Below the pieces are notes generated by a model. It did no database searches, had not been told where the DNA came from, and saw nothing but the letters and a program-made list of their open reading frames with translations. Source: an uncultured Arcobacteraceae bacterium (lineage in GTDB: Bacteria > Campylobacterota > Campylobacteria > Campylobacterales > Arcobacteraceae). Taken from it: a stretch of DNA of 64,000 nucleotides. This document shows positions 27,624 to 47,216 of the stretch, piece after piece; positions within the stretch are counted from its first letter, which is position 1, and every line of letters starts with the position of its first letter. The position numbers and the translations under genes were made by a program. The stretch covers positions 16,203-80,202 of the forward strand of contig CAXHZO010000009.1 in the NCBI GenBank assembly GCA_964022095.1, read 5' to 3'.

Positions 27624-28940
27624 TTATAAAATAGAGTTTATAGGCTCCAAGGGAATAGAAATTTTGAAAACTGCTCCTTTATGACTCTGGTTTTCATACT
27701 CATAGTTTTCATTTCTAGCTTGTATTCTTCCGCACATACTATCTTCAATGATTTTTTTACTCATATATAAACCTATTCCTGTGCCCTTATCATCATCTTT
27801 TGTTGTAAAGTAGCTATCAAAGATTTTTGTTTTTATATTTTCAGGAATCCCACCTGCATTATCTTTTATTTCTAAATATAAGTACTTTTCATCTTTATAT
27901 GTCTTTATAAAAATCAATTTTTTTGGTTTATCTAAGCTTTTTAATTCATCATAGGCATTTTTTAAAATATTGATTATTACTTGTAGTAATTCATTTTCAT
28001 ATCCATATAAATCAATCTCTTTTATATCTTTTATTAGTTGAATATTACTATTTATTAATTGTGCATTTATAAGTTTGAATACTTTTTCTAAAGAGTTACT
28101 TATTTTAAAATAGTTTATAACCTTACTTGGTTTAAAAAAGTTTCTAAAATCATCTATTGTGTGAGCCAAGTTTTCAACTGAATAATCAATAACCTCAATT
28201 GATTCATCAACTTTTTCATCAAAGTCACCATATTGTCTATTTAGTTTTAATAAAGCATTTGAAGCTCTAATTGTAGAGAGAGGCTGCTTCCACTGATGAG
28301 CTATATTTGCAATCATTTCGCCCATAATTGCCATCTTTGATTGCTGTACTAATAGGTTTTCTTGTTTTCTAATTTGTGTTAGGTCTAAAGCTGTTGAAAT
28401 AAAAACTTTTTTACCATCAACAACTCCATATGGACTTATATAAATATACCAAGTTAATACTCTTTTATCTTTAGTATTAATTTTAAACTCACCTAATCCC
28501 ACTTTTTTATTTATGTTTTGATGTGATTTAAAAAGCTTTATAGTATCTTGAGCTTTATCTCCAAAAACTCTATATGACCATTTTTCTAAAGTAGATACTT
28601 CTTCATACTTGTATCCAGTTAACTTAAACCAAACATTATTTATTTTTAAAGGAATACCATCTTCGTTATATATTACTATTGGAACTCCAACATTGTTAAA
28701 TACATTTTCAAGACTTTGTCTTAAGTTTTCTTCTTCTTTAAAATATTTATTAAAAAGAAAATATATTAATATTGCTGTTACAAGTATGAAGAAAATTCCT
28801 TTTAAACTCTGCATTAAAGCTAGTGCTTCACTATCTTTTACAAATTCATGTAAAATACTATCTGAAAAAAGTATCCATAATATACTAAAGAATATATAAA
28901 AAAATGATACTTTTATTGCGGGGGATGTTGATTTGAACAT
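27624..28940 (-). CDS. PAS-domain sensor histidine kinase (no adjacent response regulator)
   Basis: Two N-terminal TM helices, PAS, H-box IAHQWKQPL, DNAGGI, GTGIGLYM. Confidence 0.92.
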   Translation of the reverse strand: MFKSTSPAIKVSFFYIFFSILWILFSDSILHEFVKDSEALALMQSLKGIFFILVTAILIYFLFNKYFKEEENLRQSLENVFNNVGVPIVIYNEDGIPLKINNVWFKLTGYKYEEVSTLEKWSYRVFGDKAQDTIKLFKSHQNINKKVGLGEFKINTKDKRVLTWYIYISPYGVVDGKKVFISTALDLTQIRKQENLLVQQSKMAIMGEMIANIAHQWKQPLSTIRASNALLKLNRQYGDFDEKVDESIEVIDYSVENLAHTIDDFRNFFKPSKVINYFKISNSLEKVFKLINAQLINSNIQLIKDIKEIDLYGYENELLQVIINILKNAYDELKSLDKPKKLIFIKTYKDEKYLYLEIKDNAGGIPENIKTKIFDSYFTTKDDDKGTGIGLYMSKKIIEDSMCGRIQARNENYEYENQSHKGAVFKISIPLEPINSIL

Positions 28941-29128
28941 ATACTTAAAACCTATTTTATTCTTTACATAATTTAATTATTAATTATAACAGAACAAGAT
29001 GAAATGAATATAATATTTTTTTAAAAAGATATATTTTTAATACTTATACTTCTTAAGCCTTATGTATTATATTTAATGATATAGTTTATTTATAAATAAT
29101 TAAACAAAATTCTCTATAGAAAAAACGT

Positions 29129-29875
29129 ATGATAAAAACAATATTAATTTTAACTCTTTTTTGTATTTCTTTATTTGCTCAAAAAATTAACATTGCAGTT
29201 GCAGCTAATGTTAGCTATGCAATCAATGATTTAATAAAACAGTTCAATAAATCAAATCCTAATACAAAAGTAATAGTAACACTAGGAAGTAGTGGAAAAC
29301 TAACAGCACAGATTAAAAATGGTGCACCATATGATATATTTATGTCTGCAAATATGAAATATCCAAACTCTTTATTTGAAGATAAAATTGCTATTACCAA
29401 ACCTATAGTTTATGCCCATGGAAGTTTAGCCCTTCTCACTGGAAAAAATCTTGATCTTTCAAAAGAACTAGAACTTTTAAAAGATAAAAAAATCAAGAAA
29501 ATAGCCATTGCAAATCCTAAAACTGCACCTTATGGAAAAGCAACAGTACAAGCACTAAAAAATGCAAATATATATGATTTGATATATAAAAAATTTGTGT
29601 ATGGAGAATCAATTTCTCAAACTGTAACCTATGCCACAAGAGCTACAGATATAGGATTTATTGCAAAATCTTCACTATATAGTTCAAAAATGAAAGCCTA
29701 CAAAAAAAATATCCATTGGATTGATATTGATTCATCTTTATATACTCCAATAAATCAAGGAATTGTAATACTAAAAAAAGCTTCAAAGATTCAAGAAGCA
29801 AAAGATTTTTATGAATTTATATTAAGCCAAAAAGCAAAAAATATATTTAAAGAATATGGATATTTAATTCCATGA
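29129..29875 (+). CDS. modA: Molybdate ABC transporter substrate-binding protein
   Basis: AVAAN, GSSGKL..QI..GAPYDIFMSA, IANPKTAPYG. Confidence 0.95.
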   Translation: MIKTILILTLFCISLFAQKINIAVAANVSYAINDLIKQFNKSNPNTKVIVTLGSSGKLTAQIKNGAPYDIFMSANMKYPNSLFEDKIAITKPIVYAHGSLALLTGKNLDLSKELELLKDKKIKKIAIANPKTAPYGKATVQALKNANIYDLIYKKFVYGESISQTVTYATRATDIGFIAKSSLYSSKMKAYKKNIHWIDIDSSLYTPINQGIVILKKASKIQEAKDFYEFILSQKAKNIFKEYGYLIP

Positions 29876-30273
29876 ATAGATTAAAAGCCCTTGTAACAAA
29901 TATTGATAGATTAGACAGTTTAAATATTGTTAGTTTTGATTTTAGTGGAATAACTCTAAAAATGATGAGCTTAGAACTCAATGAAAAAATCAATATTGGA
30001 ACAACTGTTATTCTTGCAGTGAAACCAACCCATGTAACTTTTGCTAAAAACTTTCAAGGTTATATTAGTGTAACAAATCAATTTAGAGCAAGAATAAAAG
30101 GGATAAATAACGGCAAACTACTAAGTAGTGCTATTTTTGAGACAAAAGGAACTTTAATAGAAAGTGTTTTTACAACTACTAGTTTAAGACAAATGAACCT
30201 ACAACTTCATGATGAGTTTACAATCATGGTAAAAGCTAGTGATATCTCTATAAAGGAGATTTGTGATGATTGA
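29872..30273 (+). CDS. TOBE/Mop-domain molybdate-binding protein
   Basis: Two TOBE-like repeats (MNRLKA..., SVTNQF.A.I..I..G.L, VKASDI) inside the mod operon. Confidence 0.8.
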   Translation: MNRLKALVTNIDRLDSLNIVSFDFSGITLKMMSLELNEKINIGTTVILAVKPTHVTFAKNFQGYISVTNQFRARIKGINNGKLLSSAIFETKGTLIESVFTTTSLRQMNLQLHDEFTIMVKASDISIKEICDD

Positions 30274-30958
30274 TACTTTTACAAACATTGATTTTCAACC
30301 GTTTTATATCTCTTTTAAATTAGCATTTGTCACAACTTTGATTTTGTTTATTATATCTTTACCACTATCTTGGTACTTATCTCAAACCAAGTCAAAAGCA
30401 AAACCATTTTTAGAAGCTATTACTGCACTTCCTTTAGTACTTCCTCCTTCTGTAATTGGATTTTATATTTTATGGGCATTGTCTTATAATTCACCTATTG
30501 GAGCTTTTTTTGAAGAGACTTTTGGAGTAAGTTTAGTATTTAATTTTACGGGACTTGTCATAGCAAGTTGTTTTTATAGCTTGCCTTTTATGGTACAACC
30601 ACTTCAAAATGGATTTGAAAGCTTAGATAAAAATATGCTAGAAGCAAGTTTTATTGCAGGTAAAGGGAAAATAAAGACTATATTTAAAATAGCCCTTCCA
30701 AATATCAAACCAGCTTTATTAACTGCACTAATAGTGACTTTTGCCCATACAGTTGGTGAGTTTGGAGTGGTTTTAATGGTGGGTGGAAGTATCCCAGGTG
30801 ATACAAAAGTAGCCTCTGTTGCAATATATGAATTTGTAGAAATAATGGATTATAGCTCTGCTCATGTGTATAGTATTATTATGATAATAATCAGTTTTTT
30901 AGTGCTACTTAGTGTTTATATTTTTAATCAAAAGAATAATAAAAAATTTGGGGTATAA
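30263..30958 (+). CDS. modB: Molybdate ABC transporter permease
   Basis: LPLVLPPSVIGF, YSLPFMVQP, FAHTVGEFGVVLMVGGSIPG. Confidence 0.95.
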   Translation: MMIDTFTNIDFQPFYISFKLAFVTTLILFIISLPLSWYLSQTKSKAKPFLEAITALPLVLPPSVIGFYILWALSYNSPIGAFFEETFGVSLVFNFTGLVIASCFYSLPFMVQPLQNGFESLDKNMLEASFIAGKGKIKTIFKIALPNIKPALLTALIVTFAHTVGEFGVVLMVGGSIPGDTKVASVAIYEFVEIMDYSSAHVYSIIMIIISFLVLLSVYIFNQKNNKKFGV

Positions 30959-31035
30959 AAATAACAAAATGAAATACTTTTTAATAAAATAATTTATTTT
31001 TGCTAGTATTAAAGTAAATAAGAGAGGTAAAATAA

Positions 31036-31938
31036 ATGAACAATTCAAATATTGAAAACCAAATTATTACAATAGATAATATCAAAACAAAAATATACAC
31101 CATTAGAGATCTTCAAGTTATGCTTGATAGTGATTTAGCTTTAATTTACGGTGTAACAACAAAAAGACTAAATGAACAAGTAAAAAGAAATATCGAAAGA
31201 TTCCCTGAAAGTTTTAGATTTCAACTAAATAAATTGGAAAAAAATGAGCTGGTCGCAAAATGCGACCACCTTGAAAATCTAAAATTCTCAACTTCATTAC
31301 CCTACGTTTTCACAGAACAAGGTGTATCTATGCTAAGTGCTGTACTTAAAAGTGAAACTGCTATAAAAACAAGTATAAAAATCATAGAATCATTTGTAAA
31401 TATGCGAAAATTCTTATCTTCAAACAATGAACTCTTTCAAAAAATAGAAACTTTAGAGAAAAGACAAATATCTTATGAAATAAAAAGTGATGAAAAATTT
31501 GAAGAAATATTTAAAGCAATAGAAGAAAAATCTATCAAACCAAAACAAGGAATATTTTTTGAGGGTCAAGTTTATGATGCCTATATATTTATTTCTGATT
31601 TAATCAAAAATGCTAAAAAAAGTATAATCTTGATGGATAATTATATAGATGATTCAGTTTTAACTCTTCTTTCAAAAAGAGATTCAAAAATAACTGCTAT
31701 AATCTATACTAATAATATAAATAAACAACTCCAATTAGATATCAAAAAATATAATCTACAATACCAAAAAATAGAGATAAAAAAATTTACTCTAAGTCAC
31801 GATAGATTTTTAATAATAGATGAAAATGAGATTTATCATATAGGAGCTAGTTTAAAAGACTTAGGCAAAAAATGGTTTGCCTTTTCAAAACTAGATATCA
31901 ATAGTTTTGAACTATTATCAAAGATAAAGGAAGTATAA
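31036..31938 (+). CDS. ORF6N DNA-binding domain protein with C-terminal PLD-like domain
   Basis: IRDLQVMLDSDLALIYGV.TKRLNEQVKRNIERFP..F.FQL, PYVFTEQGVSML (ORF6N); DNYIDD and HDRFLIID..YHIGASLKD (PLD-like). Confidence 0.85.
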   Translation: MNNSNIENQIITIDNIKTKIYTIRDLQVMLDSDLALIYGVTTKRLNEQVKRNIERFPESFRFQLNKLEKNELVAKCDHLENLKFSTSLPYVFTEQGVSMLSAVLKSETAIKTSIKIIESFVNMRKFLSSNNELFQKIETLEKRQISYEIKSDEKFEEIFKAIEEKSIKPKQGIFFEGQVYDAYIFISDLIKNAKKSIILMDNYIDDSVLTLLSKRDSKITAIIYTNNINKQLQLDIKKYNLQYQKIEIKKFTLSHDRFLIIDENEIYHIGASLKDLGKKWFAFSKLDINSFELLSKIKEV

Positions 31939-31939
31939 A

Positions 31940-34042
31940 TTGGAATTAGTTTATTTATGGGTTGAAAAGTATAAAAATATAGAAAATCAAGGCTTTAATT
32001 TCTCTCCTAGATTTGATTGTAATTTTGATAAAAGAACTAATGAAAATGAAAAACTTGATTTAAAAAATAGTATTTTATCAATAAAAGAAAAAAATGATTC
32101 AATAAATTTATATCCTAATAATATTAATGTAACAGCTATTGTTGGAGAAAATGGTAGTGCAAAAAGTACATTAGTTGAATTAATCACTTTCTTTAGAATT
32201 GAGAAAATAGGTAATATATTAGAAAATAAAATCTTAATTTTAGTATTTGAAGAAAATGATACACTATATATTCCTGATATGAATTTTATAGATTTGTCTC
32301 ACTCCTTTGAAAAAATCAATATACAAATTATTAATAAAACTAAATTTAATATTCAAGAAGGGTATACCCATGCAAGTGAACTTTTTGATATCAGTATATT
32401 TTTAAATGATTTAAGTAATTTTACAGACCAATCTAAAATACATGAATCTTTAAAAATTGATAAATATGAAAGTTTATATAATGGCTATCATATCTTGTAT
32501 GAAAATGATACAAAAGACTATTCTTTAATCCAAAAAGAGTTTGATGCAAAATATGCGTTTATAAATTCTAAAGATGATAAATTTTTTCACTTTCTAAACG
32601 AAAAATTCTTGTTTAGTAAAATGAGTATAAATATTGATGTTGAAAGTTTAGTCAATTTTAATTTTTTAAATGAAGAAGACAAAGATATTTTCAAAGAAAT
32701 AAAAAAATATTTTTATGATTTTTCAGGTTATACTCTGTCTGAAGAAGCTTTAATTTATAAAAAAGATTATGAAAATAGATATACATCAGAATATTCAAAA
32801 ATACAAAAAGAATATCTAATTTATAAAATGACATCTTTTTTACAAATAAAAAACTATTATCGTCTTATAAACAATTTTTCTAGAGATTTTAAAGAAGGAA
32901 TTCTAAAAGAAAAATATCTAAAAAATGTATTTAAAGAAATTGAAATTCAAATTACTCCTTTTTCTCCTTCACAAAATATAAAAAGTTCATATAATATATT
33001 AGAAAAAAAAAGATTAAGCATATCGTATTTCAATAACTTAATAATTAATTTAAATAAAGCTTTTAATTACATTGATAAATCATTTATTGATTTATTTAAA
33101 GATAAAAAGGGCTTATTAAAAGACTACAAAAGCTTTAGAAAGGAATTAATAAAATTCAATCACTATAAAACTTTTATAAAAATAGTTAGTAAAAACTTTA
33201 AGCTTGTTCAAGACCGACCAAAAGATATTTTATCAATTAAATTTGATAAAATTTCATCCTCAATTATAAACAATTTTAATAAGAAATTAAATAAAAATAT
33301 AAATTTTGCAACTTTATATAATTCTGGTCAACTCTATATGAATTTTCTACATGAAACTAATGATAACTACACATATCAGAATTTAAGCACTGGAGAAAAA
33401 TCATTATTAAAATTCTTAGTAAACTTTGTCTTCACTATAAATAATTTAGATTATTCAAAAAGATCAGTAATTTTCTTTGATGAAATTGAATGTAGTCTTC
33501 ATCCAATTTGGCAAAAAAAGATATTTAATATTATTTTGAAACTAATATCAAAAAAGATGTTTATAGAAAATAAAACTAAATGGCACTTTATATTTTTAAC
33601 TCATTCCCCTTTTATATTATCAGATATACCTAAAGAGAATGTAGTTTTTCTTAAAAATGGTAAACAAGAATATCCATTTAAAGAAAATGAACAAACTTTT
33701 GGAGCAAATATTCATACTCTTTTATCTCATGGTTTCTTTATGGAAGATGGTCTTATGGGAGAGTTTGCAAAAAGCAAAATTGAAGCTATAAAAAACTTTT
33801 ATGACGATGTTAAAAAATCTGAAAATCCAAAAGATGAATTTTTAGAAAAATATATAAGCAATATTGAAGAATTTAAAAATATTCAAAAAATTATTGGTGA
33901 ACCATTTTTGAAAACAATTATAGGTAATTATCTTGAAGAATTAGAGTTGATTCTTTCTGATGAAGATTTAATCAATAAAGAACTAAAAGAACTAAAATCT
34001 AGAATAACACATTTAAAGAAGTTACGAAATGACAAAAATTAA
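31940..34042 (+). CDS. ABC/AAA_21-type ATPase, PtuA-like (TTG start)
   Basis: Walker A GENGSAKST, signature LSTGEK, Walker B FFDEIECSLHP, H-loop THSPF, TFGANIH. Confidence 0.85.
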   Translation: MELVYLWVEKYKNIENQGFNFSPRFDCNFDKRTNENEKLDLKNSILSIKEKNDSINLYPNNINVTAIVGENGSAKSTLVELITFFRIEKIGNILENKILILVFEENDTLYIPDMNFIDLSHSFEKINIQIINKTKFNIQEGYTHASELFDISIFLNDLSNFTDQSKIHESLKIDKYESLYNGYHILYENDTKDYSLIQKEFDAKYAFINSKDDKFFHFLNEKFLFSKMSINIDVESLVNFNFLNEEDKDIFKEIKKYFYDFSGYTLSEEALIYKKDYENRYTSEYSKIQKEYLIYKMTSFLQIKNYYRLINNFSRDFKEGILKEKYLKNVFKEIEIQITPFSPSQNIKSSYNILEKKRLSISYFNNLIINLNKAFNYIDKSFIDLFKDKKGLLKDYKSFRKELIKFNHYKTFIKIVSKNFKLVQDRPKDILSIKFDKISSSIINNFNKKLNKNINFATLYNSGQLYMNFLHETNDNYTYQNLSTGEKSLLKFLVNFVFTINNLDYSKRSVIFFDEIECSLHPIWQKKIFNIILKLISKKMFIENKTKWHFIFLTHSPFILSDIPKENVVFLKNGKQEYPFKENEQTFGANIHTLLSHGFFMEDGLMGEFAKSKIEAIKNFYDDVKKSENPKDEFLEKYISNIEEFKNIQKIIGEPFLKTIIGNYLEELELILSDEDLINKELKELKSRITHLKKLRNDKN

Positions 34043-34976
34043 CTATCCAAAAGATTTTGATAGAAATAAATATTATGAGAAGATATCAAAAAAATATTTC
34101 TATATTAGTAAAAATGAATATTTAAAATTTAAAATTAAATCTCATTCAACTGATAAAATTACACTTGAAGAGATTTTCAATTATTTTAAAACAAATAAAA
34201 TAGAAAATTTTCACACTATTTTCAAAGATATCAGTTTTAAATATTTGCTGATTGGAAACTTTCTTATATTAAAAAAAATAAAAAAATATCTTAAATCAAT
34301 AAAAGGAAATAAAGGCATTGATTTCCTGTTTAATTATACTTCTTTACAAAGTAAAAAAATCAAACCTTTTTTTGAAGATAATCTCTTAATTTCAACTTGT
34401 TATTACTGTAATATTGACTTTATAAATGTTTACTCTAAGAAAAAAAGAAAAAAAAATAAATTTACACTAGACCATTATTTTGATAAATTTACTTACTCTT
34501 ATTTAGCGTTATCTCTTTATAATTTTGTTCCTAGTTGTTATACATGTAATAGTAAACTAAAAGGTACTATTGAGTTTAATAATTTATCTCCAACTTCTAA
34601 AAAATACAACTTCAATGAAAAAGTAAGATTCAAAATAAAGTTATCGAGTAATTGTAAACATTTAGATATTAAAGATAAAACAGATATTGATTTAGAATTA
34701 AAAGAAAGCTATTCAAAAGACTATAAAGACTTTATTGAAAAAATGTTTTTAAATGAAAGGTATGAAGTTCATAAAGACTTAGTCTTTGATATGATTAAAA
34801 AAGCAGAACTATATCCAGAAAGCAGATTAAAAGAGTTACAAAACCTAACTGGAATGCCATTTCAACAAATAAAAAAAGATATTTTTAATTTAATTGACGA
34901 AAATGAAGATTTATCAAAAAAACCTTTTAGTAAACTAATCAAAGATATTAGTGAAGAATTAGGATTAATAAAATGA
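34029..34976 (+). CDS. HNH endonuclease, PtuB-like
   Basis: CYYCN...LDHYFDK...YNFVPSCYTCN zinc-bound HNH motif; overlaps the ATPase stop. Confidence 0.83.
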   Translation: MTKINYPKDFDRNKYYEKISKKYFYISKNEYLKFKIKSHSTDKITLEEIFNYFKTNKIENFHTIFKDISFKYLLIGNFLILKKIKKYLKSIKGNKGIDFLFNYTSLQSKKIKPFFEDNLLISTCYYCNIDFINVYSKKKRKKNKFTLDHYFDKFTYSYLALSLYNFVPSCYTCNSKLKGTIEFNNLSPTSKKYNFNEKVRFKIKLSSNCKHLDIKDKTDIDLELKESYSKDYKDFIEKMFLNERYEVHKDLVFDMIKKAELYPESRLKELQNLTGMPFQQIKKDIFNLIDENEDLSKKPFSKLIKDISEELGLIK

Positions 34977-35821
34977 TTGAAATAAACATAGAAAAACAAT
35001 TGCATGGTTCACAAGGACAAATGAACTTAGATATAGATTTACAAATACAAAATGGTGATTTTATAGCTCTAAGTGGTCTTAGTGGTAGTGGTAAAACTAC
35101 ACTTTTAAGAATCATTGCAGGTCTAGAAGAAGCAAGTGGAACTATAAAAATAGATGATGAAATTTGGCTAGATGAAAGACACAATCTTGCAGTTCAAAAA
35201 AGAAAAATCGGTTTTGTATTTCAAGATTATGCACTATTTACTAATATGTCAGTAATGCAAAATCTTCTTTATGTTTCAAATGATAAAAAATTAGCAAGTG
35301 ACTTACTAGAAATCACAGAACTAAGTGAACTAAAAAATAGAATGCCAAATACTTTAAGTGGTGGACAAAAACAGCGAGTTAGTTTATGTAGAGCCATGAT
35401 GAATAAACCAAAACTACTACTTATGGATGAACCCCTTTCAGCACTTGATCCAGCTATGAGAACAAAACTACAAAGTGAAATTTTGCAACTTCACAAAGAG
35501 TTTAATACAACTACAATAATGGTAAGCCACGATCCAAGTGAGATTTATAGACTTAGCAATAGAGTTATAGTTTTACAACAAGGTAAAATCATAGATGATG
35601 GAGATGCTAGAAAAGTACTACTTAAAACAAATGGTAGTGCAAAATTCTCTTTTGAAGGAGAATTACTAGAAATCATAAAAGTTGATGTAATCTCAATTGC
35701 TATTGTATCAATAGGTCAACAAATAGTTGAAATTGTAATTAGTCACGAAGAAGCTTCAAATCTAAGTTTAGGACAAAAAGTAAATGTAAGCACAAAAGCA
35801 TTTGCACCACTAATTGATTAA
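34973..35821 (+). CDS. modC: Molybdate ABC transporter ATP-binding protein
   Basis: GLSGSGKTT, FQDYALF, LSGGQKQRV, LLMDEP, C-terminal TOBE-like domain. Confidence 0.92.
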   Translation: MIEINIEKQLHGSQGQMNLDIDLQIQNGDFIALSGLSGSGKTTLLRIIAGLEEASGTIKIDDEIWLDERHNLAVQKRKIGFVFQDYALFTNMSVMQNLLYVSNDKKLASDLLEITELSELKNRMPNTLSGGQKQRVSLCRAMMNKPKLLLMDEPLSALDPAMRTKLQSEILQLHKEFNTTTIMVSHDPSEIYRLSNRVIVLQQGKIIDDGDARKVLLKTNGSAKFSFEGELLEIIKVDVISIAIVSIGQQIVEIVISHEEASNLSLGQKVNVSTKAFAPLID

Positions 35822-35835
35822 AAAAGTCTTTATAT

Positions 35836-36252
35836 CTATATCACCAAATAAGCTAAAAAAAGATATCTTAAAAATTTGGCAATTACTACAAGTACAATAA
35901 ATTTTTTAATATCATATTTTAAAACTCCAGCAATAAATGTAATAGGATCTCCAATTATTGGAAGCCATGAAAACAAAAGTGTAAAAGCTCCATATTTATC
36001 GAAAAACTTTTTAGAGACTTTTATATATTTCTCTTTAATATAGTTTTTTTGCACTAAGTACTCTTCACCTTTTAATCCTATAAAGTAATTTACAAGTGAA
36101 CCCAAGCTATTTCCAAGTGTTGCAAAAAATAAAAGTAAATAAATATTATAGCCTTGAGTAATATCATAAATAAGTAAAGCTTCACTTCCAAGTGGAAATA
36201 AAGTAGCTGAAATAAAGGCTGTAAAAAAGAGTGTTATATATATCATTAACAT
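35836..36252 (-). CDS. YqaA/DedA-family membrane protein
   Basis: FISATLFPLGSE, LFSWLPIIGDP, AKFLRY. Confidence 0.88.
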   Translation of the reverse strand: MLMIYITLFFTAFISATLFPLGSEALLIYDITQGYNIYLLLFFATLGNSLGSLVNYFIGLKGEEYLVQKNYIKEKYIKVSKKFFDKYGAFTLLFSWLPIIGDPITFIAGVLKYDIKKFIVLVVIAKFLRYLFLAYLVI

Positions 36253-36343
36253 AAATTATAACTGTTTTATGCTAAATTAAAGTTTGTTTAAATATAATAG
36301 CGAACTCAAAAGAGGAACACTGAGAATATATTGGTATTTTCAA

Positions 36344-36450
36344 TGCTCTTCTTTAGCCCCTTACAAGCATTACTAGAGACAACGCCCCAGGATGGGAACA
36401 TAGCAAGGCACCTCTTTTATTGTTGTGTTTGGGTACCTGGAGAAGAGTGC
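36344..36450 (+). ncRNA. ffs: SRP (4.5S) RNA
   Basis: Helix-8 motif CCAGG-ATG-GGAA-CAT-AGCA. The 5' GCTCTTCT pairs with the 3' AGAAGAGT in a long rod. TATAAT at 36293-36298 and an AGTGC..GCACTTTTTT terminator. Ends are approximate. Confidence 0.85.
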
Positions 36451-36569
36451 TATCAAAAAGCACTTTTTTCAAACTACTTAAATTTAATCAATCAATAACA
36501 AAATTTCAAAATAAAAACTTCATAAACCACATAAAAATTAGTATAATTAATTCAAAAAAGGAAACTTTT

Positions 36570-37454
36570 ATGAAAGTAGGATTTATTGGATTAGGAATCA
36601 TGGGTAAACCTATGGCTAAAAACCTAATAAAAGCAGGATATGAACTAATCGTTACAAATAGAAGTAAAGCCTCTGTAAAAGAATTAGAAGCTTCTGGTGC
36701 CATTGCCGTTAGCTTGCCAAAAGAAGTTGCTCAACAATGTGATGTGATTATTACTATGCTTCCAAATTCACCACAAGTAAAAGAGGTGATTTTAGGGAAT
36801 AATGGAGTTATTGAAGGAGCTAAGGAAGGTACAACAATTATTGATATGAGTTCAATTGCTCCATTAGCTTCTCAGGAAATTTCAAAAGAACTAGCTAAAA
36901 AAGGTATTGAGTTATTAGATTCTCCTGTAAGTGGTGGTGAACCAAAAGCAATTGAGGGGACACTATCAGTTATGGTTGGTGGGAAAAAAGAAGTATTTGA
37001 TAAATACTATGATTTAATGATGGCAATGGCTGGATCTGTAGTTTATACAGGAAAAGTTGGTGCAGGTAATACTACAAAATTAGCAAATCAAATAATTGTA
37101 GCACTAAATATCGCCGCTATGTGTGAAGCTTTAGTATTAGCTACAAAAGCAGGAGTTGAACCTGAACTTGTATATCAAGCAATAAAAGGTGGATTAGCTG
37201 GAAGTACTGTTTTAGATGCAAAAGCTCCATTAGCCATGGATAGAAAATTTGATCCTGGATTTAAAATTAATTTACATATAAAAGACTTGCAAAATGCACT
37301 AGATACTGCACATGAAATAGGTGCTCCTGTTCAAATGACAGCTGCTGTTATGGAAATCATGCAAGCGATGAAAGCCCAAGGTGAAGATCATTTAGACCAT
37401 GGTGCAATAATAAAATACTATGAGAGATTAGCAAAAGTCGAAGTTAAAAGATAA
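36570..37454 (+). CDS. garR: 2-hydroxy-3-oxopropionate (tartronate semialdehyde) reductase; real start is the ATG at 36570
   Basis: MKVGFIGLGIMGKPMAKNL, MLPNSPQV, SGGEPKAI.GTL, GGLAGSTVLDAKAP, LHIKDL.NALDT; AAGGA RBS. Confidence 0.88.
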   Translation: MKVGFIGLGIMGKPMAKNLIKAGYELIVTNRSKASVKELEASGAIAVSLPKEVAQQCDVIITMLPNSPQVKEVILGNNGVIEGAKEGTTIIDMSSIAPLASQEISKELAKKGIELLDSPVSGGEPKAIEGTLSVMVGGKKEVFDKYYDLMMAMAGSVVYTGKVGAGNTTKLANQIIVALNIAAMCEALVLATKAGVEPELVYQAIKGGLAGSTVLDAKAPLAMDRKFDPGFKINLHIKDLQNALDTAHEIGAPVQMTAAVMEIMQAMKAQGEDHLDHGAIIKYYERLAKVEVKR

Positions 37455-43796: not shown

Positions 43797-46145
<2,349 letters not shown>

Positions 46146-47216
46146 CTATTTTTCTAAAACAATTGGCATAACGATTGTTCTAAATTTTTCATCTTGTAAG
46201 TAGAATGGTAAATTTGATTCATTAAATCCTACTGCAATTTTTTCATTGTCAGTCATACTTAAAAAGTCTAATAAATATTTTGCATTTACTGCTAAGAAAA
46301 ACTCTTCTTGGATATTTAAATCTATGTCTACTTGTGTTTTTGATTCTGTATCTTCATCTAAAGATTCAAACATAATACTATTAGGAGAGAATGTAATTTT
46401 AATGTTTGAAAATAAAGAAGTTACTAATTTAATTGATTCAACTAAAATATTTTTTGGTAATTCAAAATTATGTTTTAAAGTATTTGGAATAATTCTTTCA
46501 TAATCAGGGAACTTACCATTAATTAGTTTTGTAAAGAATTTTGTATTATCATTTGAAATTACTAAATTAGTATCATCATATGAAATTTTAGCATCATCTA
46601 AAAACAGTTTTTGAATTTCAATAATTGCTTTTTTAGGAATAATAAATTGTGTTTCTTCATTAGATATATTTTGTAATTGAGATACTGCTAATCTTCTAGT
46701 ATCAGTTGCAACAAAATTTATTTTAGAAGTTTTAATATCTAATAATGCACCATTTAATTCAAATTTAGGATTATTGTTATCAATAGCTGGTGTTATTCTT
46801 CTAATAGAAGTAATAAAATTTAAAGTAGAAATTGATAAATCTTTTAAATCAGTAGTTTTACTAATATTTGGATATTCATTAGCATCATACATTGGTAATT
46901 TAAAAGTAGATTTTTTCTGTTTAATGATTAAATTACTACCAGAAGTTTCTATTAGTATTTCTTCATTTTTTAATCTTTTAATAATACCTAGTAAGTTAGA
47001 ACCATTTACTGTTGCTTTTCCATCTGCACAATCTGTTATGCTATCTATTTTAGATTCTAAACCAATTTCATAGTCTGTTGCTTTTAAGTTAAGACTATCA
47101 TTAGTTGTTTCTAAATAGATATGTGATGTAATTGAACTTGCATCTTTTTTTTCTAAAAAAGGTTGCATATGCGCTACTACATTTTCAAAAACATTTTTTG
47201 TAATTACGAACCTCAT
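46146..47216 (-). CDS. dnaN: DNA polymerase III beta sliding clamp
   Basis: ATDYEI, ATDTRRLA, GKFPDYERIIP, VMPI; located between dnaA and gyrB. Confidence 0.97.
   Translation of the reverse strand: MRFVITKNVFENVVAHMQPFLEKKDASSITSHIYLETTNDSLNLKATDYEIGLESKIDSITDCADGKATVNGSNLLGIIKRLKNEEILIETSGSNLIIKQKKSTFKLPMYDANEYPNISKTTDLKDLSISTLNFITSIRRITPAIDNNNPKFELNGALLDIKTSKINFVATDTRRLAVSQLQNISNEETQFIIPKKAIIEIQKLFLDDAKISYDDTNLVISNDNTKFFTKLINGKFPDYERIIPNTLKHNFELPKNILVESIKLVTSLFSNIKITFSPNSIMFESLDEDTESKTQVDIDLNIQEEFFLAVNAKYLLDFLSMTDNEKIAVGFNESNLPFYLQDEKFRTIVMPIVLEK

Follow-up and report, generated by a model that had tools for sequence, protein, structure and literature searches.

Two stacked candidate anti-phage modules in a cargo slot inside the molybdate-transporter operon of an Arcobacteraceae bacterium

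How do three very AT-rich genes come to lie inside a molybdate-transporter operon, between the gene of its permease (modB) and the gene of its ATPase (modC), and what might they do there? The question is raised by a stretch of 64,000 nucleotides (nt) from an uncultured Arcobacteraceae bacterium (contig CAXHZO010000009.1), called here the window, in which the interval 30959..34976 separates the two transporter genes. This site was compared with that of related genomes; the window's own genome is designated G000, and G001, from the sister species, is the only other genome of the genus that was compared. Our reading, to which we give a probability of nearly four in five, is that this insert of 4 kb consists of two stacked modules, both catalogued as candidate anti-phage systems, in a recombination-swapped cargo slot of the operon.

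Gene layout and family membership

The conserved left flank is modB, encoding the molybdate ABC permease (30263-30958, + strand; TIGR02141, 4.7e-67, above the cut-off), whose protein is 93% identical to that of G001. The conserved right flank is modC, encoding the ABC ATPase of the transporter (34973-35821, +), with 87-88% protein identity to its G001 counterpart. Between them, after an AT-rich spacer of 77 nt (30959-31035, +), lie gene 1 (31036-31938, +; 300 aa), encoding a protein with an ORF6N head and a PLD-fold tail, gene 2 (31940-34042, +; 700 aa, with a TTG start), encoding an ABC/SMC-type ATPase, and gene 3 (34029-34976, +; 315 aa), encoding an HNH nuclease. Genes 1 and 2 are separated by 1 nt, genes 2 and 3 overlap by 14 nt, and the stop codon of gene 3 overlaps the start of modC in a 4-nt ATGA. 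All three reading frames are intact. The G+C fraction is 0.214 over 30959-34972, against 0.283 for modA-modB, 0.305 for modC and 0.278 for the whole window. The preliminary description of this DNA had reported three co-oriented AT-rich genes between a modB ending at 30958 and a modC starting at 34973, with the 1-nt gap and both overlaps, and had seen no integrase, transposase or flanking direct repeat. Our measurements agree on every point: domain searches of the three genes gave no integrase or transposase family, and repeat searches around them returned only AT-rich chance matches, direct or inverted.

Gene 2 matches the PADLOC model of PDC-M62A (PDLC04737) at 7.1e-89, its residues 1-694 aligning with positions 1-595 of 601, and Pfam recognizes AAA_21 and SMC_N in it. 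In an alignment of 27 family homologues, the first ~80 residues, including Walker A (69-76), and the last ~230 residues are conserved, and the signature LSTGEKS (482-488), the Walker B motif VIFFDEIE (510-517), the H-loop (554-558) and a family-specific C-terminal block (585-611) are all present, whereas residues ~81-470 form a hypervariable stretch, in length as well as in sequence. The Walker A sequence, GENGSAKS (window 32144-32167, +; Ala codon GCA at 32159), has an alanine, A74, at the position where a glycine otherwise precedes the lysine. This glycine occurs in 27 of 27 family homologues and in 117 of the 120 database homologues listed; the three with GENGSAKS are gene 2 and its two closest relatives (83% and 77% identical). 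Because these relatives share it, the substitution is a feature of a small clade and not an error or a fresh lesion. The preliminary description had suspected a distinct ATPase variant from both the Walker A motif and the length of the protein. Together these two features set apart no more than a small sub-clade. Homologues range from 473 to 700 aa, which puts gene 2 at the top of the normal range, and its excess of ~100 residues over the best PDC-M62A model (601 positions) lies entirely in the variable middle. A provisional call of the G090 homologue as a pseudogene was withdrawn, the break being a run of 10 N in the assembly.

Two further observations concern the 5' end of this gene. The first 81 nt (window 31940-32020) show a mean DNA identity of 82% across 20 otherwise very divergent M62A genes. 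Also, orphan N-terminal fragments of ~31 codons were found in the mod gap of a Sulfurimonas (L083:9076-9171) and 5' of gene 1 in G165 (L250:4734-4826). The conserved end may be a recombination handle for exchange of the variable domain.

Gene 3 matches the PADLOC model of PDC-M62B over its full length (PDLC04743, 3e-43, residues 1-313); a Pfam search gave no match. Alignment of 25 homologues revealed the HNH signature CxxCN...DH...N...CxxCN, in which C124, C127, N128, H149, N165, C170, C173 and N174 are invariant and D148 nearly so; C124, C127, C170 and C173 form a four-cysteine zinc site. The C-terminal tail PFSKLIKDISEELGLIK (residues 299-315) is strongly conserved, with S301, K302, L303 and D306 invariant, and could serve as a docking peptide for the ATPase. 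These last ~17 residues (PFSKLIKDISEELGLI, window 34923-34973) are kept even in homologues that are 30-34% identical overall, and their codons double here as the ribosome-binding site of modC. In a fold search against 48,161 chains, the four best matches of the gene 3 model were all PtuB-type (9n6b_F, Z 5.6; Septu PtuB 8ee7_C, 4.6; 9kjx_F, 4.1; 9e8z_E, 3.8), scores that are low but congruent. Each of the 29 further family loci in which the ATPase was found also encodes an HNH homologue, on the same strand and downstream of the ATPase gene; we treat the pair as the unit.

The same order, an ABC/SMC-type ATPase followed by an HNH nuclease, is that of Septu PtuA/PtuB and of the retron type I-A PtuAB (Ec78/Eco7), to which the window pair bears a remote likeness. 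The PADLOC PtuA models reach 8e-17 at best with gene 2, over residues 471-626 only, and PtuB reaches 3e-3 with gene 3. By sequence, the only relatives of gene 2 among solved structures are retron I-A PtuA chains, weakly matched (E ~3e-4), and the alignment profile of gene 3 matches the retron I-A HNH chain 9n69_F at E 1.5e-5. The window proteins are larger than these. Because the curated thresholds for PtuA and PtuB are missed, genes 2 and 3 are assigned as Septu-like and not as Septu proper. With PDC-M62 itself, both proteins share full-length matches (7e-89 and 3e-43), the gene order and the overlap; the window pair differs in its longer ATPase, in GENGSAKS and in its place inside a transporter operon. 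A survey of the Bacillus cereus group counted 203 calls of PDC-M62 as duplicates of Septu calls (PMC11811056), which together with the model scores suggests that PDC-M62 is best seen as a Septu-like sister family. Thus the label of a Septu/PtuAB-like cassette, given in the preliminary description, holds after a PADLOC check for the PDC-M62 pair, below the curated cut-offs, and does not extend to gene 1, which is a separate candidate. The same description had likened the pair to a retron type I-A effector. As an identity this was rejected: the three genes contain no reverse transcriptase domain, and an Rfam scan of 28000-36500 gave no retron non-coding RNA.

Gene 1 matches the PADLOC model of PDC-S05 over its full length (PDLC04869, 4.1e-123, residues 2-298). 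Its DNA-binding head (residues ~19-103; Pfam ORF6N, 8e-30) is followed by two long helices in a coiled coil (~107-163) and by a C-terminal alpha/beta domain of PLD fold (~172-293), in an AlphaFold2 (AF2) model with a predicted local distance difference test score (pLDDT) of 80.7. Structure comparison of residues 172-293 gave PLD folds at Z 11.2 to 9.0: FAM83 (11.2), NucT (10.2), Nuc (10.1), the nuclease domain of SauUSI (9.8) and PLD3/4 (~9), with Zucchini also within this range. The earlier naming of the protein as ORF6N/PLD was therefore right as far as the fold goes. The domain shares its fold with the PLD nucleases Nuc, NucT and Zucchini and the nuclease domains of BfiI and SauUSI, and Foldseek matches to PLD folds have E 1e-5 to 1e-3. 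The top full-length Foldseek match, TrmBL2, has the same architecture, in which a long helix joins a DNA-binding head to a PLD-like tail. In 27 aligned homologues of 54-100% identity the active-site region reads H255-D-R257-x4-D262-x5-H268-x-G-A-S-x-K274, with H255, R257, D262, G270, A271 and K274 invariant and S272 nearly so. The catalytic His and Asp of PLD enzymes are retained; compared with the canonical H-x-K-x4-D-x6-G-S-x-N, the form H-x-R-x4-D-x7-G-A-S-x-K has Arg for Lys, Lys for Asn and one additional spacing residue. Because catalytically dead PLD folds match the model equally well, PLD-type activity is only a candidate function.

The gene 1 family is very large, with at least 8000 candidates at E of 0.001 or better; the 120 homologues listed are 55-100% identical to the query and carry source names from several phyla. 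Elsewhere the tail is joined to RhuM or KilA-N heads or stands alone, and it is present in 110 of 184 genomes of the family, at up to 10 copies each. Gene-1-type genes also form tandem arrays of 2-4 copies (G046:C1:1028799-1032044; G069:C77:511-3117; G044:C22:59604-60957), and a second, truncated gene 1 tail in G000 (G000:C12:19631-19837) is an open frame of 74 aa, 74% identical over query residues 66-134. One member of PDC-S05 has been assayed, of RhuM type: in Escherichia coli B it is reported to lower the plating efficiency of T7 and T5 about 1000-fold, and to protect against T7, T5 and T4 (bioRxiv 10.1101/2024.09.26.614923). With the PDC-S05 family gene 1 shares the full-length model match and the ORF6N head, but it has a PLD-fold tail where the assayed member has a RhuM/Fic-like one. 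Judged by their family matches, then, genes 1 to 3 are two catalogued candidates, PDC-S05 and PDC-M62A/B, and not one new system.

The modB-modC slot in relatives

Comparison with G001 locates the boundaries of the insert. DNA identity between the two genomes is 86% through 16 nt past the modB stop (window 30974), just after ATGAAA, and it resumes at 83% 5 nt before the modC start (window 34968). At the same boundaries G001 carries a gene of 115 aa, DsrE-like, which is ~75% identical to the copies in G007 and G012. In G000 only a paralogue at 33% identity was found elsewhere in the genome, and between modB and the cassette ATGAAA opens a mini-ORF (open reading frame) of 7 codons (30969-30992) that may be the remnant start of a DsrE-like gene. 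From the shared flanks, and from a DsrE-like gene present in G001 and lost in G000, it follows that the cassette replaced a resident gene at exact boundaries internal to the operon. Such cysteine-rich DsrE-like genes of 115 aa (L031:4437-4784, - strand; L038:5328-5675, -; L037:4615-4962, +) are ~75% identical over three genera. Gaps of ~360 nt between modB and modC occur in roughly 10 family genomes, and the DsrE-like gene is a frequent resident.

The junction was then surveyed more widely. Among the matches listed, 132 genomes of the family allow modB to be paired with modC on a single contig (26 other genomes were not pairable). The gap between the two genes is at most 60 nt in 89 of these and longer in 43, which belong to 10 of 22 genera. 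Of 29 relatives' loci found with modB, 20 have modC adjacent to it, 8 have cargo in between and 1 has no modC nearby. The survey also took in 80 loci of other Campylobacterota and of outgroups. Of these, 73 contain both genes, in 65 cases with at most 50 nt between them; 5 Campylobacterota loci have inserts, and 3 outgroup loci (Bacteroidota) have gaps of 89, 176 and 2875 nt. The preliminary description had proposed a recombination-swapped hotspot between conserved flanks, and had admitted that invariant core genes would speak against it. With 89 empty and 43 occupied sites, and alternative cargo across the modB-modC intervals of relatives, the three genes are not invariant core genes and the hotspot is borne out.

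The cargo of this slot is diverse and comprises at least 10 PADLOC families. Catalogued defence candidates include PDC-M62 pairs, PDC-S05 of RhuM, PLD and mixed types, PDC-S02 (YhcG nuclease), PDC-S01 (AAA_14-DUF4143), PDC-S22 (KilA-N) and PDC-S26 (PD-(D/E)xK). GmrSD-like Orf5/HEC-06, SoFic, PemK toxin genes, HhH-GPD glycosylase-like genes, an archaeal-type ATPase_2 and unannotated genes of 180 and 234 aa were also found. None of the 63 cargo ORFs scanned belongs to an integrase or transposase family, and no junction motif shared by the loci was seen by eye in 20 of them. In 28 of 29 occupied loci inspected the cargo is co-oriented with the operon, the exception being G149. There (L155, G149:C71:11356-14999), an antisense GGDEF-EAL and rhodanese insert, the lone cargo on the opposite strand, is followed by a DsrE-like gene in sense. 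In two loci the PDC-S01 cargo has its own near-consensus promoter (TTGACA, ~17 nt, TATAAT; L153:60-115 and L160:70-130), flanked by repeats of a GGACAAAA-like word that is a likely operator.

Defence hotspots flanked by core genes have been described in Pseudomonas aeruginosa and E. coli. The modB-modC slot strongly agrees with that type: it has conserved flanks, an empty state and alternative cargoes, many of them defence candidates, with no recombinase among the cargo ORFs scanned and no att-like repeats flanking the cassette of the window. It differs in lying inside one transporter operon, between the permease and ATPase genes, in the nearly constant orientation of its cargo, and in that one third of the cargo is non-defence. 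We found no published description of a modB-modC hotspot in the literature, nor any account of Arcobacter defence systems together with Septu.

How often did PDC-M62 enter this slot? It occupies the mod gap in 9 of 184 family genomes (G000, G003, G012, G015, G065, G090, G094, G154, G192) and in six loci from metagenomes or metagenome-assembled genomes (L084, partial; L091; L173; L183; L184; L185), while M62A is present somewhere in 89 of 184. A maximum-likelihood tree was computed from 30 HNH proteins, of which 8 stand in mod gaps. Four rows were left out: L045 repeats L037, L061 lacks an intact ORF, and L063 and L064 are truncated where the locus ends. Explaining the 8 mod-gap rows on this tree takes 7 label changes, at least 6 of them forced by well-supported branches, and 293 of 500 shuffles were as low. 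The mod-gap rows are thus polyphyletic and a single ancestral insertion of M62 at this site was rejected. Also, of the two M62 pairs of G003, the window pair is much closer to that outside the gap (61.6% identity) than to that inside it (36.8%). Mosaicism is apparent in L173: over its last 74 residues the nuclease shares 86% identity with that of the window, whereas the ATPase is ~55% identical. The simplest reading is repeated capture, at the mod gap, of the commonest local system.

Searches of phage and plasmid records identified no known phage or plasmid as a vehicle of the cassette. Partial matches to gene 1 occur in 7 unannotated metagenomic phage records, with less than 80% of the query covered in each. 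For gene 2 there were matches in 48 plasmid records, with identity always under 60% and coverage never reaching 80%. In several draft genomes a contig ends within ~120 nt of the gap-facing end of modB (G148:C71:4-690, G153:C217:3-692, G147:C27:93-782, G152:C125:120-809), as would happen if assemblies broke at repeated, multi-copy cargo in the gap. M62 pairs also recur at similar coordinates in genus g11 (G049:C1:205002, G082:C1:205207, G041:C1:204972), and 7-17 kb downstream of modC in genus g12, which suggests further hotspots elsewhere in those genomes.

Alternative explanations and counter-evidence

Are the three genes one system or two? If one, the ORF6N-PLD protein would serve the ATPase-HNH complex as a DNA sensor or a second effector, and gene 1 would be needed for the ATPase to be translated. 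Gene 2 does open with a weak TTG start, 1 nt past the gene 1 stop. A homologue of gene 1 lies directly 5' of M62A in G090, G158 and G165, and these copies and gene 1 itself make up four of the five best matches to the gene 1 C-terminal domain; a RhuM-type PDC-S05 gene also flanks the M62 pair in G015 and G154. However, the closest known M62 pair (L170; 83% and 81% identity) stands in a different neighbourhood without a gene 1 homologue, and upstream homologues of gene 1 occur in 3 of 30 family ATPase loci, the window's own included. Conversely, among the matches listed, 4 of 150 gene-1-type family genes adjoin a listed M62A, and the PADLOC models handle PDC-S05 as a single-gene candidate. We therefore consider a three-component system unlikely and, as gene 1 is found mostly away from M62A, and L170 does without it, we take gene 1 to be a module of its own, an occasional companion of the pair.

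A second alternative accepts the junction as a true cargo slot and adds two propositions: that a molybdate-regulated promoter ties expression of the defence genes and of modC to molybdate status, and that the arrival of M62 is driven by the cassette, via recombination handles or a homing-like cutting of the junction by the HNH enzyme. The 82%-identical start of M62A may be one handle, and the conserved end of the HNH gene, which supplies the ribosome-binding site of modC, another. We regard this combination as improbable. As to the promoter, no terminator-like site was found on the + strand between 30958 and 35821. Promoter-like sites numbered 45, against 56 expected from shuffles; with no enrichment, no promoter is assignable. 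A promoter-like hexamer pair does occur at 30961-30990, within the spacer between modB and gene 1, a kind of site that is likewise not enriched over shuffles; the 77-nt spacer is possibly a promoter for gene 1. The Rfam scan, run at E up to 1, revealed no molybdenum cofactor (Moco) riboswitch or other regulatory RNA near modA; it returned a signal recognition particle (SRP) RNA and a chance microRNA match, and nothing else.

Still less probable, in our view, is a mainly selfish ATPase-HNH pair, addiction-like or homing-like, whose nuclease would drive its persistence and spread and which would have inserted time and again between modB and modC. Homing nucleases are found among HNH enzymes, the M62 inserts at the junction are polyphyletic, and M62 accounts for 8 of the 17 gaps over 1.5 kb in the family; the well-kept 5' end of M62A and its orphan fragments in L083 and L250 would also fit such an element. 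Set against this, the family has no commoner system of this kind than M62, which lies mostly at other sites, many unrelated cargoes share the same junction, no target motif or repeat was seen at empty sites, and Septu relatives are reported as defensive by experiment (PMC12819146). Least credible of all is a functionally decayed cassette, kept since its deletion would disturb modC expression, with A74 and the odd PLD motif as marks of inactive proteins: the reading frames and all remaining catalytic motifs are intact, GENGSAKS survives ~20% divergence, and the invariance of HxR...K in 27 of 27 gene 1 homologues over 54-100% identity argues for selection.

Several findings also weigh against our preferred reading, two candidate defence modules in a cargo slot. 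The curated models are missed by a wide interval: NF041760 (PtuA) gives gene 2 37.1 bits against a cut-off of 500, and TIGR02646, the model of the retron/Septu HNH family, gives gene 3 16.5 bits against 52. The AlphaFold model of gene 3 is moderate, at pLDDT 71 with catalytic core loops below 50, and a Foldseek search with it gave no match at E of 0.001 or better. Gene 2 lacks the Walker A glycine of all its family homologues. In gene 1 the PLD motif is HxR...K instead of HxK...N, and catalytically dead folds (FAM83, TrmB/TrmBL2) are among its top structural matches; its family is multi-copy and forms tandem arrays, which is unusual for a defence gene. We found no experiment on PDC-M62 or on PLD-type PDC-S05 in the literature, and the study that proposed the PDC candidates arrived at them through "guilt by embedding" and, as far as its accessible text goes, did not assay them (bioRxiv 10.1101/2024.01.29.577857). 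Also, part of the slot cargo is plainly non-defence: a HAD hydrolase with an FAD oxidoreductase, TauE, NhaA, GGDEF-EAL with rhodanese, a binding protein with a histidine kinase, and the DsrE-like gene of 115 aa. Location alone is thus weak evidence for defence.

Possible mode of action, operon context and significance

Work on related systems suggests how the two modules might act. In stand-alone PtuAB, the PtuA hexamer is reported to bind ATP without hydrolysing it, ATP lowers DNA nicking, and a phage protein acts as the trigger (PMC12819146); another study reports cleavage of tRNA-Tyr by Septu, with loss of this tRNA (PMC13096335). By analogy, M62A would oligomerise and hold M62B inactive, perhaps via the conserved tail of the nuclease. 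Its hypervariable middle would sense a phage cue and then release or activate the nuclease, and the freed M62B would nick DNA, cause tRNA loss, or both, halting the infection. The A74 P-loop may alter the affinity for ATP and hence the threshold at which the system fires. As to gene 1, the ORF6N head would bind DNA, the coiled coil linking it to the PLD-fold domain, which is probably a dimeric nuclease or a phosphodiester-binding effector.

The cassette probably entered by homologous recombination via the conserved 3' end of modB and 5' end of modC, displacing the DsrE-like gene. Transcription most likely starts from the mod promoter, from the 77-nt spacer, or from both, and would run on through modC; we propose that cargo is co-oriented because modC lies downstream, so that it must let transcription pass. 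An AGGA 5' of the modC ATG is carried by the last codons of the HNH gene, and translation of modC is probably coupled to that gene.

Upstream of modB the operon carries modA (29129-29875, +; TIGR01256, 6.5e-57, above the cut-off) and a gene for a Mop/TOBE protein (29872-30273, +). For modC, TIGR02142 is the best NCBIfam match (7.2e-60); its score of 203 bits stays under the 285-bit cut-off because ModC is here without the C-terminal TOBE part. Downstream, the bacterial small SRP RNA lies at 36350-36446 (+; RF00169, 42 bits, gathering score 40). As the mechanical start of the ORF at 36420-37454 falls within this RNA, the dehydrogenase-like gene there probably begins further downstream. The gyrB and dnaN genes (43797-47216, -) lie 8-11 kb from modC, which places the mod operon and its cargo slot near dnaN-gyrB; in many single-contig genomes of the family the operon is found ~8-46 kb from coordinate 1.

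The cassette adds a slightly unusual member to two catalogued candidate families; the slot inside the operon is the more noteworthy finding. The Gly-to-Ala clade in Walker A and the hypervariable middle domain offer natural variants for dissecting Septu-like systems. The slot itself is a single, precisely bounded junction in a housekeeping transporter operon, occupied in about one third of the related genomes examined and holding at least 10 kinds of defence candidate. It presents a case in which an essential gene downstream sets limits on how cargo is oriented and on read-through, and a test bed for the movement of defence genes without integrases. It is also a natural catalogue of swappable cargo for finding Campylobacterota systems, including the unannotated genes of 180 and 234 aa and those of ATPase_2 type.

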